Part shown: positions 1-6,293 of the stretch, in pieces
Layout: each line of letters starts with the position of its first letter
Position numbering within the stretch: position 1 is the first letter of the stretch
IMG/VR virus record: IMGVR_UViG_2671180921_000022
Coordinates: 1 to 6,293 of that record
Strand: one strand, 5' to 3'
Length of the DNA stretch: 6,293 nucleotides
Origin: a virus
Lineage: Duplodnaviria > Heunggongvirae > Uroviricota > Caudoviricetes
Program-made: the position numbers and the translations under genes
The notes under the pieces: generated by a model
What the model saw: the letters and a program-made list of their open reading frames with translations, nothing else
The model's database searches: none
Told to the model about the DNA's origin: nothing

Positions 1-696
1 TCACTTCGGGTAAGGCTGAATCCTGGATAGCTTGGTGTTTAGGCGCTTTTTTGCACGCTTATTCAGGAATCTGATGTAGCGATACTGATTAAATTTGTGT
101 ACCACGGCCCGCTCCTTATTAGCCCGCAAATACTCGCCTCGTTGCCCTCCGCGCTTAATCGCGTTCATCGCTATCTCGTGATACCACTCGCCGTCCAGCT
201 CGTAGAACGTGCTTTCATGGCTACCAATAAAATCAAAATTCGACGCCTGATATACCACGCCAGCACGTCCGCAGCGTTCGTCTGCAAAAGACTGAACCCA
301 CTCAACTGACGGATACAGTAACCTGATAACTTTCAGCGCGTAGCTGATAGCCCGTGATTCAGAATTGCGGGGCATGTCGTCGTGTAGCCACATGCGGTTC
401 AGTTCCATGTAACCCCGGTTATCTGTTTCAAGCACGACACGACGCCCTGAGTTGGGATTAAGGGCATATCCCCACTGAAGAACGCCAACCAGATCACGTC
501 CGCTGAATACGCCCAGATGCAGGTAGGAGTTATTCACAAAACGGCGGGAATAATGCTTTGTCTGAATGATTGTGCGGGCCAGCCAGCAGGATATGGTTTC
601 AACGCGCAACTCCTTTGAACCATAGCCGACAATCCGGCCTTCATACTCAATAACGCAGGGTTTTGTCAGAATGCGTGATTTCTTCTCTTTTCCCAC
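1..696 (-). CDS. mom: Mom-like DNA modification protein (Mu Mom family); 231 aa if started at GTG 696..694, stop TGA at 3..1
   Basis: Long minus-strand ORF directly downstream of, and overlapping by 50 nt, a clear com homologue. The track ORF (1..738) opens with TTG; the first in-frame ATG is at 726 with no Shine-Dalgarno. GTG at 696..694 has GGAG 7 nt upstream and gives 231 aa, which is the length I recall for Mu Mom. Protein identity beyond synteny and size is from memory. Confidence 0.75.
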
Positions 697-832
697 AATA
701 CAGCTCCGTGGGATGCTCTTTGGCATTCGATATGACAATGTAACGTTTACAGCGAGGGCATTTAATTTCTATATGCTTAAAACCTCCTTTAAACAGTAAC
801 TTATTGCAGTTCTTACAGCGAACAGAGTCCAT
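647..832 (-). CDS. com: Com zinc-finger translational activator of mom (61 aa)
   Basis: ATG at 832..830 preceded by AGGGAG. Product [61 protein letters not shown] has CxxC-x15-CxxC and is near-identical in pattern to remembered Mu Com (..[22 protein letters not shown]..). The track ORF start at 865 is a GTG with no RBS and is less likely. Confidence 0.85.
691..713 (-). promoter_or_regulatory. Translation-inhibition hairpin sequestering the mom start codon and Shine-Dalgarno
   Basis: Minus-strand RNA 713..691 is UCCCAC-GGAGCUGUAUU-GUGGGA: a 6-bp stem (713-708 pairs with 696-691) and an 11-nt loop. GGAG is in the loop and the GUG start forms the 5' end of the 3' arm. This matches the Com-relieved occlusion mechanism known for Mu mom. 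Confidence 0.5.
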
Positions 833-905
833 GATTCTCCCTGTGTAATAACCAGATACGACCACCCGGAGGGCTGGGGATATTTAACCACACATGATGT
901 AAAAC

Positions 906-933
906 GACGATCGATATGATGGTATCGATCGTC
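906..933. promoter_or_regulatory. Perfect 11-bp inverted repeat with 6-bp spacer carrying two Dam (GATC) sites; candidate methylation-sensitive operator for the com-mom promoter
   Basis: GACGATCGATA (906-916), spacer tgatgg, TATCGATCGTC (923-933); the arms are exact reverse complements. GATC at 909-912 and 927-930. The element lies 74-101 bp upstream of the com ATG in the only sizeable non-coding gap of the window (833-973). Confidence 0.5.
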
Positions 934-973
934 ATAATCTATACAAAACGCTTAATTATTAACCTTTTTTGAG

Positions 974-1444
974 TCAGCTTTCTGCGGCACTCTGAGAAAG
1001 AGGCTCTGCTATCAGGGACAGCAGTCTCTCTGTCTGTTTTCTGTTTTCGAGGGTAATTGCGCAATCCCGTTTCACCTCCTCTGCATATAATCTGACACTT
1101 TCCGCACTTTTTTGTATCTGCATTGCAATCTCTTCGAACTTTTTAAGAGATTCAGGGCGCAAATCTGCATCTGTCACCGACAAAAAATCGTTAAGCGAAC
1201 CGTCCTGTGAATCTTCATAAACGCGAATGATGCCGATTTCTGAAAGGCGCTGTGCGCTCTGTGTCAGGCGAACACTGTACACGCCCGGCAGAACGGGGAA
1301 GTCGTACTCCCCGCTCTGTGTAGTGACGTGGCTGAAAACACCTTTCAGAATCCCTGCACGGTTGTGCAGGGAGGTCAGCGTGATGGTTGTGCCGCCCAGC
1401 GGTTCTCCTGTGGGCGTTTTAATCACACCTTTAAGCTGCGGCAT
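974..1444 (-). CDS. Orphan side-tail-fibre N-terminal domain protein (lambda Stf N-terminal domain-like, about 156 aa), lacking shaft and receptor-binding parts
   Basis: The product aligns by eye to the remembered lambda Stf N-terminus: LKGVIKTPTGEP vs ISGVLKDGTGKP, GVYSVRL vs GQYSVIL, IRVYEDSQDGSLNDFL vs ITVYEDSQPGTLNDFL, DLRPESLKKFEE vs DARPEVLRRLE. The ATG at 1444 has GGAG 7 nt upstream and aligns with the lambda Stf start; track ATGs at 1486 and 1471 are alternatives. The ORF overlaps the tfa stop by 14 nt. Confidence 0.7.
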   Translation of the reverse strand: MPQLKGVIKTPTGEPLGGTTITLTSLHNRAGILKGVFSHVTTQSGEYDFPVLPGVYSVRLTQSAQRLSEIGIIRVYEDSQDGSLNDFLSVTDADLRPESLKKFEEIAMQIQKSAESVRLYAEEVKRDCAITLENRKQTERLLSLIAEPLSQSAAES

Positions 1445-1961
1445 CGGGATGCTCCGGCCAGCTGATGGCATTAAGGGAGGCTTCATCAGTAACGGCGCTT
1501 AAATCCAGCGCTTTTACCGCTTTGATATACGCCATCCACTGCGCAAGACGAGCTTTGTCGTCATCACTGATGACGCCCAGCTCCAGCTCGGCTTTCCAGT
1601 CGGAGGTGATGTCCTTTGCTTCAGTCAGCAGATGCTGGCGTTGTTTTTCTGCCAGTTGCGAATAATCAACAGGAACCGGCAGCACTTCGCCGTCTTTGTA
1701 ATACCAACTGGCTTCAATGCCAAAGCCTTCCGGCAGTTCATCAACTTCCACAATGGTGAAGCCTGCCGGATAAAGACGGGACACGTCTTCTGCCATTGAA
1801 TAAATCACGCCGCTTTCAGGGTGAATGCACAATTTGTATCTCTTCGTGAATTTGTCCATGGATTCATAAAAATCCTGTCCGTCTTCACTGCGGAAATACT
1901 GAATGCCTTCACCATAAGGCATATCTTCAGGGTAGTAACGCGTAACATTTCTGAGTTCCAT
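1431..1961 (-). CDS. Tail fibre assembly chaperone (Tfa; Mu U / P2 gpG family), about 176 aa
   Basis: Product has the characteristic Tfa C-terminal region (..LGVISDDDKARLAQWMAYIKAV..SWPEHP). ATG at 1961 is preceded by AAGGAG (minus-strand TTAAGGAGAAAATAATG). It lies immediately downstream of the fibre gene. The track start at 1997 overlaps the fibre ORF and has no RBS. Confidence 0.85.
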   Translation of the reverse strand: MELRNVTRYYPEDMPYGEGIQYFRSEDGQDFYESMDKFTKRYKLCIHPESGVIYSMAEDVSRLYPAGFTIVEVDELPEGFGIEASWYYKDGEVLPVPVDYSQLAEKQRQHLLTEAKDITSDWKAELELGVISDDDKARLAQWMAYIKAVKALDLSAVTDEASLNAISWPEHPDAAA

Positions 1962-1975
1962 TATTTTCTCCTTAA

Positions 1976-2785
1976 TTAACCTGATACGGTGCGCCATGAA
2001 CCATTGATATAAATCTGCGCGGATTTGTAATACACACCACCGATGTTATCCGCCGAACTTCTTCCCGTATCCTGGACATAAATGCCTGATAACTGACAGC
2101 CTGAAGGCGCGCGAAACGTCCAGGTGATTTCGTTACCGCCCGGGTTGTAAAACACCTCATTGGTGTACTGAAAATCACGCACAGCGCCGGAATCGGTGGT
2201 GCTGATGGTGATATCACTGGTGCCATCAAACAGCACATTGTTAATCCTGCGTGCATTCTGAAGGCGGGTTGCCGTTCCGGCGTTGCCGCTGATGTTGCTG
2301 ATGGTGATATCCGAAGACAGGGCCAAACCGTTGACCCTGCGGGTATTCGGTACAGCACTATTGGCTTTATTTACCGTGTCACCTAATGAAAGTGCGTTGA
2401 TAATTTCACTGGCCGTGGTTTTTCCAAGAATACCGCGCACAAAAGCACTGAGCGGCGTTAACGCCATTGTGTCTTCGCTGGTAAAATACGGGAACGTGTT
2501 ATTCTCACCGGTTAATCCGGCAATGGCACCGGCTGAACCACTGTTCATAATAAACAGCTTTTTCAGGGCTGCCATTATCTGACCGGTATCTGCTTTATCC
2601 GGCGTTATTCCGGCTTCTTCGAGAATTTTCAGCAATTCAGACTGAATGATATTAAACCAGTCCGGCCCCGGATAGGTGGGCGGAATACCGTTCCCGCCTT
2701 CGGTGAAATAAAGCGTTGTCTGGCTTGATACTGGCGCAACAGGCGGCATCACCGGCACGCCGGTATTATTATCAACATGATACAT
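1976..2785 (-). CDS. Short tail fibre protein (269 aa): tail-collar-like N-terminus, P2 gpH-like C-terminus
   Basis: ATG at 2785. N-terminal ..YPGPDWFNIIQSELL.. resembles the conserved baseplate-attachment region of Mu S / P2 H fibres. The central ..FPYFTSEDTMALTPLSAFVRGILGK.. and the terminal ..YINGSWRTVSG resemble remembered P2 gpH (..FPYFTGNDVASLATLTKVGRDILAK.., ..YINGTWYNVAQV). Stop TAA at 1978..1976, followed by the tfa RBS. Confidence 0.8.
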   Translation of the reverse strand: MYHVDNNTGVPVMPPVAPVSSQTTLYFTEGGNGIPPTYPGPDWFNIIQSELLKILEEAGITPDKADTGQIMAALKKLFIMNSGSAGAIAGLTGENNTFPYFTSEDTMALTPLSAFVRGILGKTTASEIINALSLGDTVNKANSAVPNTRRVNGLALSSDITISNISGNAGTATRLQNARRINNVLFDGTSDITISTTDSGAVRDFQYTNEVFYNPGGNEITWTFRAPSGCQLSGIYVQDTGRSSADNIGGVYYKSAQIYINGSWRTVSG

Positions 2786-2827
2786 ATCTGATTATTTCTC
2801 CTGATATTGTGTATACAGAGATATTTA

Positions 2828-3871
2828 TTATTCAGTGGCGCTCCGTGCCTGATTAAGCAACTCCGCTGAGAAGGTCAGCTCCCCCCTTGCGAAAGGCGTT
2901 TCTCCGCCCGGTTCCGCCATAAAACTCTGTGAGACTGTGGTCCAGCTGTTTGTGTCGTATTGTGCGCCATCCTCTGTAATCATTGCGCCTTCATGGCTTC
3001 CGTTTTTCACTTTCCAGGCCAGACAGTTATTGGGTGCGTCTGCGCTGCGGTAAGTAACAGAAGCCATTACAGCAATGACATTGTTGTTACTGTTGTCCAC
3101 CGCACCAAACGTAACCTGTGCAGCCTCCGTGGAGGGTGAGAGCATCAGGTATCCGGCATCACTGTCAGATGTGTTCAGCCCCGTCACAATATCTTTGTCC
3201 AGCGAGTTTCTGGCACTCCCGCCGGAGAACGCCGTTACCGGACTGTAGCCAACCTCAACACTCCCCAGCAGTGATGGTGAGGCATCATAGTTATCACCAT
3301 ACGGCAGCGTCGCCAGGTACATATCACCCAGCATCACAGTACCGGATACACCTGACGTGAAAATACGTCCGGTATCGCCAATCCCCACCGTAACCTGGTC
3401 CACGTCATTAAAGTAAACGCGTCCGACTAACGAGCGGTTACAGTACAGGCTGGCTGACGCCCGATTACTTTCACTTAGCGCCACAAAAATCTCAAAATAG
3501 TAACTGGCTGCCTCATCAGGATACGGTGTGGTGAATGATTTACCGCCGACACGGATATACGAAGATGAATTTTTCCCCCCTTCACTTAATGTCAGACGAA
3601 AACCCATCTGTACGGCAGAGCCGCTTAAATCAGGAAGCGGAATATAAAGATAAAGAGGTCCCTGCGGCTGAAAAATCAGCCCTGTTCTTTCTGTTGTATT
3701 AACAACCTGTGTGCCACGACGAACGGATACGACAGAAGAGTTGTACATGTCACTGATAAGTGTGACGCCGTTTTCGTTCAGTGCGGAAAGAATGTTTGCC
3801 GGAGAGGGGGTCTCACACAATTCCTCATCCGCCGGAATTTGTCGGAAGCTTTCGAGTTTTATGATATTCAA
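2828..3871 (-). CDS. Hypothetical protein in the tail-fibre locus (347 aa from TTG 3871; 362 aa from TTG 3916); possible accessory receptor-binding or fibre-associated protein
   Basis: Uninterrupted minus-strand ORF with no in-frame ATG near its 5' end. TTG at 3871 is preceded by AAGGAG at 7-nt spacing, whereas TTG at 3916 overlaps the gp48-like gene and has no RBS. Ends in tandem stops TAA TAA (2830..2825). Ser/Gly/Thr/Asn/Tyr-rich like phage fibre or receptor-binding domains, but I recognise no specific family. Confidence 0.6.
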   Translation of the reverse strand: MNIIKLESFRQIPADEELCETPSPANILSALNENGVTLISDMYNSSVVSVRRGTQVVNTTERTGLIFQPQGPLYLYIPLPDLSGSAVQMGFRLTLSEGGKNSSSYIRVGGKSFTTPYPDEAASYYFEIFVALSESNRASASLYCNRSLVGRVYFNDVDQVTVGIGDTGRIFTSGVSGTVMLGDMYLATLPYGDNYDASPSLLGSVEVGYSPVTAFSGGSARNSLDKDIVTGLNTSDSDAGYLMLSPSTEAAQVTFGAVDNSNNNVIAVMASVTYRSADAPNNCLAWKVKNGSHEGAMITEDGAQYDTNSWTTVSQSFMAEPGGETPFARGELTFSAELLNQARSATE

Positions 3872-3893
3872 AGTTACTCTCCTTTTATTTTTG

Positions 3894-4817
3894 CTATTCG
3901 GATATGACCACAGCAAAATGCAGTCCCGGATGATTAATCATTAACGGTTCACTGGTTCTGTTGACTGTCTGTAATTGCATACTGTTAACCGGTACGGGGG
4001 AGCCTGTTCTGTATCCCACCTGCATCTGCGCACTGGTAATTGTCATGGGTTCAGTTGTTGGTTGACCTGAATGCAATTGTGCCCTGCTGAGCATCAGCGG
4101 TTCACCTGCCAGTGCCGGAACAACCGCAAAATGCATTCCAGCACAGTTAATCGCTACTGGATCCGCAGCTTTGTATCCGGCCTGAACCCAGGTACGGTTA
4201 ATGGACAGTGGTGGACCGGAAAGAGATTCATCATCACCATCTGTGTAAAAAAACTCATACCCTGTTCCGCCCATGCGGTAATTTTTCAGGAGACATTCCA
4301 GTTCGCGGGTCCGTTCGCTGATTAATGGCGTCATGACGTCATCAATACAGGTAAACCGACCGGCATCGTTGTCCGGGACTTCCACTTTCAGCAGCCAGCG
4401 ATACCGCGCCGGATGCAGCGGATACATGCAGTCGCGCAGGCAGTGGTGCGGCAGAACGGCCGTCACCTTTATGGTGAAGCCCAGCGCCGCAGCAGCAGCT
4501 TCAATCTGCCAGGTTGCCAGCCCGCCCTTGCGGCGGTATTTCTCAACCACAGCACGGCGACGGGCTTCCGTTGTGGTGGCGGCAATTCCGCATTCCGGCA
4601 GCGCCAGATACTGCTCCCACTCCGGCAGCAACTGGAGCGTGGTTTCCGGGCGCATCTCCACATGCAGACGCGAGGCGTCGTATTCAACGCGGGTTAAACG
4701 CTCTGCAAGCGCCCTTAAAAAACGGTTTAAATCTGCATCGTTATCACGCGGCCATGCCTTACCCCGTGGCATGACCTGTTGCAGTGCGGTCAGCCATTCC
4801 GTCACGCTGTGAGCCAT
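3894..4817 (-). CDS. Mu gp48 / P2 gpI-like baseplate-tail protein (DUF2313/YmfQ-like N-terminal about 190 aa) with an extra C-terminal repeat region of about 115 aa
   Basis: ATG at 4817. N-terminus MAHSVTEWLTALQQVMPRGKAWPRD... is typical of gpI/gp48-family proteins. Position is right after the baseplate-J-like gene, with a 16-nt overlap. The C-terminal region carries about five degenerate 15-aa repeats. Confidence 0.8.
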   Translation of the reverse strand: MAHSVTEWLTALQQVMPRGKAWPRDNDADLNRFLRALAERLTRVEYDASRLHVEMRPETTLQLLPEWEQYLALPECGIAATTTEARRRAVVEKYRRKGGLATWQIEAAAAALGFTIKVTAVLPHHCLRDCMYPLHPARYRWLLKVEVPDNDAGRFTCIDDVMTPLISERTRELECLLKNYRMGGTGYEFFYTDGDDESLSGPPLSINRTWVQAGYKAADPVAINCAGMHFAVVPALAGEPLMLSRAQLHSGQPTTEPMTITSAQMQVGYRTGSPVPVNSMQLQTVNRTSEPLMINHPGLHFAVVISE

Positions 4818-5878
4818 GTCACCACCCCGATGGTGATAAGCTCATCCACATCACTGGTGGTGTCTTCCCCGATGTTGAGGAAGTAATCCGTGATACCGGA
4901 CGTCATACCGATGGCCGTGCGCAGCGAGGACACCGGCAGCATCTGACCGGGGGCCAGCGTTTTCTGTAATGCGGTCAGGTTTGCCCGGACGGCGTTCCTG
5001 TTCGCCTGGCTGTCCGGTGTCAGACGGATGGACAGGTCGACCTTCTTCAGCCTGACCTGTACCGGCCAGACCTCGATGCCGCCCGGTTTGCCCACCATCA
5101 CCCCGGTGGCCGGGTGTTTGTGGCAGAACAGATACTGCTCCATTGTCTTCAGGTCGTCCCGTGTGGGGATAATGTCTTCACGGTCATCATAAAGCCATGC
5201 CAGCCCGACCGTGCCGGGGCCGTGCCACGCATCCCACGCCCACGCGCGGCTGACACCCGGCACTTCACGCGCCCAGATGACGTAATCATGCAGTGCACCG
5301 CCCACCGGGGGATTGCGGCGCACATACAGCAGACGGTCCAGCAGCTCTGCGATGGATTCGATGTCTGCGCCACCGGTGATGCCACTTTCAGTCACCGCGC
5401 CTGTGCTGCCCGTTCCGGGTAGCGGGGATAACAGAGTGAGCACGGCACCGGCAGCAAGATTGCCCGCCACACCGGCTTCTTCAGCCTGCACGATGACAGT
5501 GACCTCGCCGTCCTGTACCTCGCCGGATGTGAGTACCTGATACACCTGATTCGTGTCGGACTGCATCCGGGTTTCTGCCGGGATGGGGGACTGACTGGTG
5601 AAGGTCACCGGTCCGCTGGCAAAGGTGGCCTGCTTGCGGATAATCCCTTCATACGTTGCTGTTTTGATAATGGTTTCATCATCAGACGCGGTGGACGGAA
5701 TAATCTGGTCTTTAATCCAGCTCTGATGGTCGTATAAATCCCGGACCTGACTGCTGAATGACACGTTCAGCGCCTGCTCAACACTGACAGGCGGCAGCTT
5801 TTGCAGGCCGAGTTCATACGCAATATCTTTTTCGCCGTCGGCAATCAGTTTGCCCAGCGTGGGGATTTCATACGGCAT
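4802..5878 (-). CDS. Baseplate J-like protein (Mu gp47 / P2 gpJ family), 358 aa
   Basis: Long ORF between gp46-like and gpI-like genes; the size matches Mu gp47. ATG at 5878 has GGGAGG about 9 nt upstream and overlaps the gp46-like stop (TGA 5870..5868). The track start at 5911 is a TTG deeper into the upstream gene. Confidence 0.8.
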   Translation of the reverse strand: MPYEIPTLGKLIADGEKDIAYELGLQKLPPVSVEQALNVSFSSQVRDLYDHQSWIKDQIIPSTASDDETIIKTATYEGIIRKQATFASGPVTFTSQSPIPAETRMQSDTNQVYQVLTSGEVQDGEVTVIVQAEEAGVAGNLAAGAVLTLLSPLPGTGSTGAVTESGITGGADIESIAELLDRLLYVRRNPPVGGALHDYVIWAREVPGVSRAWAWDAWHGPGTVGLAWLYDDREDIIPTRDDLKTMEQYLFCHKHPATGVMVGKPGGIEVWPVQVRLKKVDLSIRLTPDSQANRNAVRANLTALQKTLAPGQMLPVSSLRTAIGMTSGITDYFLNIGEDTTSDVDELITIGVVTWLTA

Positions 5879-6293
5879 TAATGGTGGCCTCCCATCGGCG
5901 GGTGATTTCAATTGTGAGCGTGGTTTTGTCCGGGCGGGTTAACACCACCTGAAAGGCAATACGGTCAGGGACGATGATGCTGGCCGTGACGGTGGCGTTA
6001 CGGGCGTAACCGGCCCGCAGCAGCGGTTGCATGGACAGCCGCGCGTAATCTTCCACACGCAGGCGGACATCTTCCGTCAGCTTTTCACGCTCAAGCAGCC
6101 ACAGGCGGGAACCCCACGAAAAATCACTGTACGTGTCGCCCGGCCAGCCGCGCGGGTCGCCGGAACCATCAGGGATGACATCATCGTCATCAGCACGGGC
6201 ATCGGTGAAAAGGCAGATAAGAACCTGAGTGACCAGCCCCTCATCCAGCGAGAGGCCGTTATGGGTGACGGTGATGTCACCCCGTGAGAGCAT
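5868..6293 (-). CDS. Mu gp46-like baseplate protein (GP46 family), 141 aa; the start codon is the last triplet of the window, so the true 5' end cannot be confirmed
   Basis: Product contains ..DDDDVIPDGSGDPRGWPGDTYSD..GSRLWLLEREK.., matching the motif pattern I recall for the phage GP46 family (acidic stretch, GWWGD, GSRLWLL.REK). ATG at 6293..6291 gives a length typical for the family, but no upstream context is visible. Confidence 0.7.
   Translation of the reverse strand: MLSRGDITVTHNGLSLDEGLVTQVLICLFTDARADDDDVIPDGSGDPRGWPGDTYSDFSWGSRLWLLEREKLTEDVRLRVEDYARLSMQPLLRAGYARNATVTASIIVPDRIAFQVVLTRPDKTTLTIEITRRWEATINAV

Follow-up and report, generated by a model that had tools for sequence, protein, structure and literature searches.

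Phage Mu and phage P2 provide the closest described counterparts of the tail fibre locus compared here. The Mu tail fibre protein S (gp49; PDB 5YVQ and 9KI1) has 504 amino acids (aa) and is encoded together with gp50 (U), a member of the U/lambda Tfa family of tail fibre assembly proteins. In the cryo-electron microscopy structure of Mu, the trimeric N-terminus of S is anchored on the fibre-docking loop, residues 133–155, of the baseplate protein gp48 (PMC11915804). Mu features, in addition, an invertible G segment with S′ and U′, the invertase gene gin, and gix sites. The P2 fibre protein gpH has 669 aa and is accompanied by gpG, a Tfa-family chaperone encoded downstream. The crossover position is a recombination hot spot in the fibre genes of Mu, P1, and P2. 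The locus in question lies in a stretch of 6,293 nucleotides (IMG/VR virus record IMGVR_UViG_2671180921_000022, positions 1 to 6,293; hereafter the window), which is the right end of a Mu-like Escherichia coli prophage and encodes a tail fibre of 269 aa. Between this gene and that of gp48, the window features an insertion, which adds a repeat extension to gp48 and carries the gene of a 347-aa protein.

Further short fibres bear on the comparison. The "simplified tail fibre" system of cyanophage Pam3 (gp24/gp25) combines a short fibre on a simple Mu-like baseplate with a Tfa-like chaperone; residues 31–280 of the fibre were modelled, and the chaperone is absent from virions (PMC9608196). The domains of this fibre (tumour necrosis factor-like and glycine-rich) are unrelated to those of the 269-aa fibre, to which it is likened by description only. 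The "Short tail fiber" of Pectobacterium phage phiTE (chain 9cuy_c), the C-terminal part of which is without an experimental model (PMC11972413), Rac-SA53, POP15, and phapecoctaviruses have in common with the 269-aa fibre the last 58–69 residues, which are 57–83% identical. The phiTE-type fibres are much longer, however (554 aa in phiTE), and have other N-termini and shafts. The protein family PHROG 1833 matches the 269-aa fibre over its full length and features a common part, aa 1–134, with variable 32-aa repeats and tips behind it; nothing essential differs. No experimental study of any member of this family was found in the literature searched.

The explanation favoured here, to which we assign a probability of roughly 0.7, is that the 269-aa protein is this phage's functional homologue of S and that the insertion is a cassette that places the 347-aa protein on gp48. 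The fibre would most likely be a homotrimer, the first ~80 residues of which would sit, as they do in Mu, on the docking loop of gp48. A very short shaft would be made up of a gpH-like segment and one 32-aa repeat, and the last ~70 residues would be the tip that contacts the host surface; the Tfa protein encoded downstream would fold this tip and may stay bound to it. The cassette of 1.46 kb brought along the 347-aa gene and appended six repeats of ~17 aa in frame to the C-terminus of gp48. Most likely, the repeats hold the two-domain, lectin-like 347-aa protein on the baseplate wedge, where it would be a second receptor-binding or glycan-directed device and would replace the long Stf-like fibre of related prophages.

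The open reading frame (ORF) of the fibre has an ATG start, a TAA stop, and an AGGAG ribosome-binding site (RBS) 10 nucleotides upstream. The profile of PHROG 1833, "tail fiber protein", matches it at E 5.8e-103 in two stretches, the better of which covers aa 128–269 and reaches the end of the 322-position profile; Pfam yields no family match for this protein. The ratio of nonsynonymous to synonymous substitution rates (dN/dS) is 0.20 compared with the orthologue of E. coli TD225-C4. The fibre has 697 homologues, and among the matches listed, most have 253–343 aa and come from E. coli, Shigella, and Salmonella. Hundreds of protein clusters feature the same fibre architecture and length class, and since relatives of 237–343 aa are common in the prophages of these three genera (PHROG 1833), the shortness of the fibre is normal for its lineage. 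In the prophage loci L008–L011 and L017 (loci of the comparison are numbered L), a short fibre of this kind stands between a directly adjoining gp48 of 190–194 aa and Tfa. Intact and ordinary, the 269-aa protein belongs to a known kind of short tail fibre in Mu-like prophages. A protein 100% identical to it occurs in E. coli assemblies within complete Mu-like tail clusters (NCBI protein P0001). Among the contigs with the identical protein, L005 and L007 have chromosomal neighbours that differ from those of L006, and the TD225-C4 prophage, which has 86% DNA identity and the same layout, is inserted within rlmB. Identical prophage ends beside different chromosomal genes point to recent transposition of the element, and the differing insertion sites hence suggest that the prophage was recently mobile.

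The N-terminal part of the fibre is of the Mu type. Residues 1–124 match S by BLASTP at E 9e-25, and the match to the solved S chains covers residues 1–82. The gp48 of the window, which is 32% identical to Mu gp48 over aa 1–196, aligns with it through the docking-loop stretch 133–155. The N-terminus of gpH, by comparison, gives E 1.5, and its domain PF12571 is absent from the fibre; the detection of PF12571 in another protein, in locus L019, indicates that this test works. The segment that follows, residues ~85–145, runs AIAGLTGENNTFPYF...EIINALSLGDTVNKANSAV and includes the conserved FPYFTG...LGLQETVN segment of gpH-type fibres. Residues 96–166 match gpH 343–409 by BLASTP at E 1e-10 with 41% identity over 71 aa, and the gpH-like segment takes the place of S 83–170. 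It aligns with Mu FIQNLGLQETVNRARNAV, the site of the annotated G-segment boundary, and lies just before the Gin crossover position. Over aa 1–134, homologues are ~80% identical, and from there on their middles and tips differ; the mosaic breakpoint of the family therefore lies at aa ~134, within a few residues of the classical crossover position. In the family alignment, at least five different tip types stand behind the common N-terminal 134 residues.

The middle of the fibre holds one copy of a 32-aa repeat with the consensus SGNAGTATRLQ.ARRINNV.FDGTSDITIS. Family members with 0, 1, or 2 copies have lengths of 237, 269, and 301 aa, respectively, and members of 331–343 aa hold an inserted block of ~60 residues instead. 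Residues 163–202 are matched by several PHROG tail-fibre families. The long distal shaft is absent; S 185–435, ~250 residues, has no counterpart. In direct comparison, the tip has its best match in the C-terminal end of the phiTE chain 9cuy_c (E 3e-13). In pairwise comparison, the YINGSW end gives no significant match to gpH (E 0.05) or to S (E 1.3), whereas a profile of the last 74 residues built from 26 family members matches S 436–503 (hhalign 97%, E 2e-11) and gpH 605–667 (96%, E 3e-9). This tip module is common to many unrelated phages: Rac-SA53 (83% identity), Pectobacterium POP15, phapecoctaviruses, and a jumbo phage. Taken together, the sequence comparisons support a mosaic that would join an S-type N-terminus, a gpH-like junction, and an end domain of the S/gpH class.

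The initial annotation of this DNA had already proposed a chimeric tail fibre, and the family match, the S-type N-terminus, and the Tfa gene downstream agree with this. The protein is indeed much shorter than S and gpH (by 400 residues in the latter case) and lacks most of the shaft, as stated there, and all motifs quoted there are present: YPGPDWFN (aa 38–45), QSEL (48–51), FPYF (98–101), and YINGSW (259–264). FPYF was misplaced as a C-terminal signature, being a mid-protein motif in gpH. Of the Mu/P2-type collar N-terminus, the Mu type stands, whereas the P2 type and the collar domain do not. The gpH-like tip survives as a relation at the profile level, but the closest tips are those of Rac-SA53, phiTE-like fibres, phapecoctaviruses, and others. 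The pairwise alignments suggested as a check gave significance for the N-terminus and the middle segment and none for the YINGSW end. The view of the fibre as exceptionally short or minimal has to be given up, as it is of the standard size of a large prophage family.

The insertion is delimited by comparison with L008. Window 6293..4243 aligns by blastn with L008 3937–5987 at 96% identity, and the homology resumes at window 2786, corresponding to L008 6000, one base before the fibre ATG. The break between gp48 codon ~192 and this ATG defines a clean insertion of 1,456 bp in the window, between genes that abut in relatives; Mu has no such cassette. The insertion begins with a C-terminal extension of gp48, which is absent from Mu gp48 and from that of close relatives. 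Its six repeats follow the pattern (E/D)P(L/M/V)x(I/V)N(R)xx(L)Q(S)G...., in short EPLVINRxxLQSG, and two of them end in HFAVV. Pfam holds no family for these repeats, and a protein-database search with the extension alone returned one match. A 44-nucleotide direct repeat (window 3907–3950 and 4120–4163, 70% identical, 213 nucleotides apart) corresponds to the two HFAVV-type repeats, and in other carrier proteins this terminal type occurs only once, at the very C-terminus. The extension may be an internal duplication, possibly holding two copies of its partner.

The 347-aa protein is encoded in the remainder of the insertion. Its gene starts with TTG at 3871 behind AAGGAG, in agreement with NCBI protein P0121 and the gene calls of L005, so that the length of 362 aa given in the initial annotation is most likely 347 aa. 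The protein has no sequence match in Pfam, NCBIfam, or the PDB, and its family has none in 50,697 phage genome records. The family comprises 17 representative clusters among 1.84 billion proteins, and a profile search of genome contigs with it found a single locus. The dN/dS of the gene is 0.21. The AlphaFold2 (AF2) model features two β-sandwich domains with a predicted local distance difference test score (pLDDT) of 90 and a predicted template modelling score (pTM) of 0.88, both with the jelly-roll fold of concanavalin A (ConA)-like lectins and glucanases. In BFVD, full-length structural analogues with template modelling (TM) scores of 0.65–0.68 occur in unrelated phages, one of them annotated as "virion structural protein"; the confident ones belong to Achromobacter, Serratia, Providencia, and Cronobacter phages. 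The top Foldseek matches in the PDB are lectins and toxin receptor-binding domains.

The family of the 347-aa protein occurs together with the repeats. Repeats end the protein encoded upstream in ~45 loci of at least eight different architectures: gp48 in many loci; gp48 with an additional immunoglobulin-like domain (L032–34); short or long phage_tail_N fibres (L017, L013, L030, L038); a fibre with the P2-type N-terminus PF12571 (L019, E. albertii); and a collagen-containing fibre of an element with a P22-type portal (L018). A hidden Markov model (HMM) of the 15-residue repeat was run on 4,916 six-frame ORFs and identified 36 carrier ORFs, one per locus, with the gp48 ORF as the only one in the window. 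It has no match in Mu, P2, or relatives without the 347-aa gene. The best remaining match (independent E-value, i-E, 0.25) lies in a 64-aa ORF that immediately precedes the 347-family gene of the lambdoid L015 and L016. When IMG/VR was scanned in reverse, with the repeat alignment as the query, 25 loci came up; 24 have a 347-family gene that starts just downstream, and the remaining one is cut by the contig end. In L026, the repeats are on gp48, yet the 347-family gene is placed after the fibre and Tfa genes. The short fibre, by comparison, is present without the 347-aa gene in L008–L011, and in lambdoid, P2-like, and podophage-like elements the tail proteins that accompany the 347-aa family are unrelated. 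As the fibre occurs without the 347-aa gene and the repeats accompany its family, we infer from gene context that the 347-aa protein pairs with the repeat tail of gp48 and not with the fibre.

Two of these loci illustrate the range of settings. In L018 (4740–7041), an element whose portal is of the P22 type and whose adaptor is of the SU10 type, the 347-family gene lies behind a carrier of 412 aa with collagen repeats. L015 (2181–7357) is a lambdoid prophage with a shortened gpJ (939 aa), a 257-aa phage_tail_N protein, the 64-aa ORF, and then the 347-family gene. A shared adaptor between the gp48 extension and the C-terminus of this 257-aa protein was considered and rejected, as the two have no similarity.

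The region downstream of Tfa features the remains of a second fibre. In relatives, Tfa is followed by a phage_tail_N fibre of 642–644 aa and then a DUF4376 gene. In the window, the homology to the long second fibre ends after ~103 residues. The alignment with L008 stops at window 1130 and restarts at 964, so that window 965–1129 replaces ~2.2 kb of L008, which encode the distal fibre and the DUF4376 gene in relatives. The resulting 156-aa ORF retains PF08400 but is without the long shaft and the tip that an Stf-like fibre has in addition, and RefSeq labels its orthologue as a pseudogene. It was also considered as a complete short adaptor; this was rejected, since it does not have the repeats that end the 202-aa version of L017 and its homology ends abruptly. 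Wherever an examined prophage has the cassette on gp48, an intact long second fibre is missing, and where phage_tail_N proteins are the carriers, the repeats and the 347-family protein occupy the place of the distal fibre. The position of the cassette where a distal fibre would be fits an alternative receptor-directed device.

Other explanations concern both the fibre and its neighbour. That the 269-aa ORF is a decayed, non-working remnant of a long S/gpH-type fibre, its shaft deleted in a defective prophage, is very improbable. The missing ~250 residues of S, the genuine truncation of the neighbouring second fibre gene, and the fact that this exact element is known only as a prophage would all be expected from such decay, but so would not the recurrence of the same architecture and length class in hundreds of clusters, the low dN/dS, or the intact RBS, tip domain, and Tfa. 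The identical gene at different insertion sites implies recent transposition of a live element, and working short fibres that have a Tfa-like chaperone are known from other myophages with simple baseplates, such as Pam3 (gp24/gp25, PMC9608196). Improbable as well is a role of the short fibre as an adaptor stalk, which would bind the 347-aa protein, or the phage_tail_N fibre of relatives, to give a two-component or branched adhesin. The initial annotation had suggested such a pairing with the neighbouring ORF. It draws on the adjacency of the two genes, on the second fibre of relatives, the attachment site of which on a Mu-type baseplate is unknown, and on branched or two-fibre systems that exist on Mu-like baseplates, such as Sf14 (PMC11821841). 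The gene context contradicts it: L008–L011 have the fibre and no 347-aa gene, the 347-aa family stands beside unrelated tail proteins elsewhere, and its strict companion is the repeat module, here on gp48. Moreover, the fibre has a complete tip domain and a Tfa of its own.

Somewhat less remote, if still unlikely, is that the 347-aa protein, instead of being an adhesin held by the repeats, works on or next to the repeat-bearing protein, either as an assembly factor or as an enzyme such as a lyase or hydrolase of glycans, with the repeats as a flexible spacer or a β-solenoid, for example. The ConA-like fold is generic and covers enzymes too (PL7, GH16, and GH43-associated domains), which also counts against the favoured explanation. 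However, the protein has no sequence match to any enzyme family, and neither the phage proteins among its full-length analogues, with the virion structural protein, nor the lectins and toxin receptor-binding domains in the PDB point to catalysis.

Several further observations weigh against a functional S homologue with a 347-aa protein held on gp48. No virion of the element has been observed, and it has no known receptor. The AF2 monomer model of the fibre, from an alignment of 26 sequences, has a pLDDT of 46 and a pTM of 0.27; such low confidence is expected for an obligate trimer. The likeness of the tip to S and gpH appears at the profile level only, with a profile that includes members closer to S. 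Some of the loci searched with the repeat HMM had also supplied sequences for building it, and the match in the lambdoid L015 and L016 is marginal. Many loci are close relatives, so that only about eight independent architectures support the pairing, and neighbouring genes can occur together because they are co-inherited, without their products binding each other. Finally, Mu gp48 is present in one copy per wedge, while the other carriers are presumably trimeric, and a docking mode common to both is not obvious.

All real genes of the window lie on the minus strand and follow the order gp46 (partial), gp47, gp48, 347-aa gene, 269-aa fibre, Tfa, truncated second fibre, com, and mom (Table 1). 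Genes were assigned by a Pfam domain scan and PHROG profiles, and gene starts by inspection of RBS and start codons. The order gp46–gp47–gp48, the PF02413 Tfa gene after the fibre, and com–mom at the end are as in Mu, and com–mom is 88–89% identical in nucleotide sequence to Mu, D108, and SfMu. The true start of gp47 is probably the one that gives 358 aa. Tfa has an ATG at 1961 behind an AAGGAG RBS. Unlike Mu, the window has no gix-like site at up to three mismatches, no inverted repeats that would mark an invertible segment, and no gin, S′, or U′ among its ORFs and domain matches; these features define Mu and not the fibre family. A promoter and terminator scan of the coding strand found nothing exceeding background. 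The G+C content is 0.57–0.65 over gp47 and the N-terminal region of gp48 (window 4400–5800) and 0.42–0.53 over the fibre, cassette, and com region (window 600–4200), a contrast that fits horizontal acquisition of the fibre-region modules.

Table 1. Features of the window, with positions counted from its first nucleotide
Feature	Position	Strand	Basis
Short Mu S-type tail fibre gene, 269 aa plus stop	1976..2785	minus	ORF, RBS, PHROG 1833, identical NCBI protein
Fibre aa 1–82, putative baseplate-docking N-terminal domain, Mu gp49 (S) type	2540..2785	minus	phmmer E 2e-20 to PDB 5yvq/9ki1 "Tail fiber protein S"
Fibre aa 85–145, FPYF...LSLGDTVNKANSAV segment	2351..2533	minus	Like P2 gpH 330–398 and Mu Sc/Sv junction
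Fibre aa 146–196, one 32-aa repeat flanked by DITIS	2198..2350	minus	96-nucleotide direct repeat D3
Fibre aa 197–269, small C-terminal tip domain, presumed receptor-/Tfa-binding end	1979..2197	minus	phiTE chain match, profile homology
Insertion of 1,456 bp relative to L008-type prophage: gp48 repeat extension and 347-aa gene	2787..4242	minus	blastn
gp48, baseplate wedge protein 3, YmfQ family, 307 aa	3894..4817	minus	PF10076, E 8e-31; Mu gp48 match
gp48 C-terminal extension, aa ~193–307, six ~17-aa repeats	3897..4241	minus	Absent from gp48 of Mu and relatives
347-aa protein, predicted two ConA-like β-sandwich domains	2828..3871	minus	TTG start, AF2 fold
Tfa tail fibre assembly protein, Mu U/lambda Tfa family, 176 aa	1431..1961	minus	PF02413, E 1e-20; PHROG 136
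Second fibre gene, truncated, 156 aa: phage_tail_N and coiled-coil start	974..1444	minus	PF08400, E 9e-25
gp47/Baseplate_J wedge protein	4802..5911	minus	PF04865, E 5e-59; L005 gene call
gp46 wedge protein, 5′ end outside the window	5868..6293	minus	PF07409, E 3e-32; 150 aa in L005
com and mom genes, prophage right end	1..865	minus	PF10122, PF25680

The fibre alone adds little, being one more modular mosaic, an identical protein of which is already in the databases. It is a compact natural scaffold, consisting of docking domain, junction, one repeat, and tip with Tfa. Engineering of host range could make convenient use of the naturally occurring variants, in which the number of repeats (0, 1, or 2) and the tip (at least five types) differ. 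The more noteworthy lead is the cassette of repeats and head on gp48. Whether the insertion is a portable two-part receptor-binding cassette is an evenly balanced matter: it would consist of repeats on an upstream tail protein and of a separately encoded, two-domain lectin-like head that docks on them, and gp48 would here carry a non-fibre adhesin. Such a cassette is apparently undescribed; no description of it was found in the literature searched, which did not cover subscription journals. In phages T2 and S16, the tip adhesin gp38 is separately encoded and located on gp37. The cassette would follow by analogy the same logic, in which the C-terminus of a carrier holds a receptor-binding protein encoded just downstream. 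It differs in that gp38 of T2/S16 features a polyglycine sandwich and the 347-aa protein two predicted ConA-like sandwiches, and in that a wedge protein equipped with 17-aa repeats would here be the carrier, to which the head would bind on the evidence of gene context. If the repeats are a generic docking handle for the two-domain protein, this would account for the movement of one receptor-binding head between the tails of myo-, sipho-, and podophages, and phages or tailocins could be retargeted with a simple system of tag and head.

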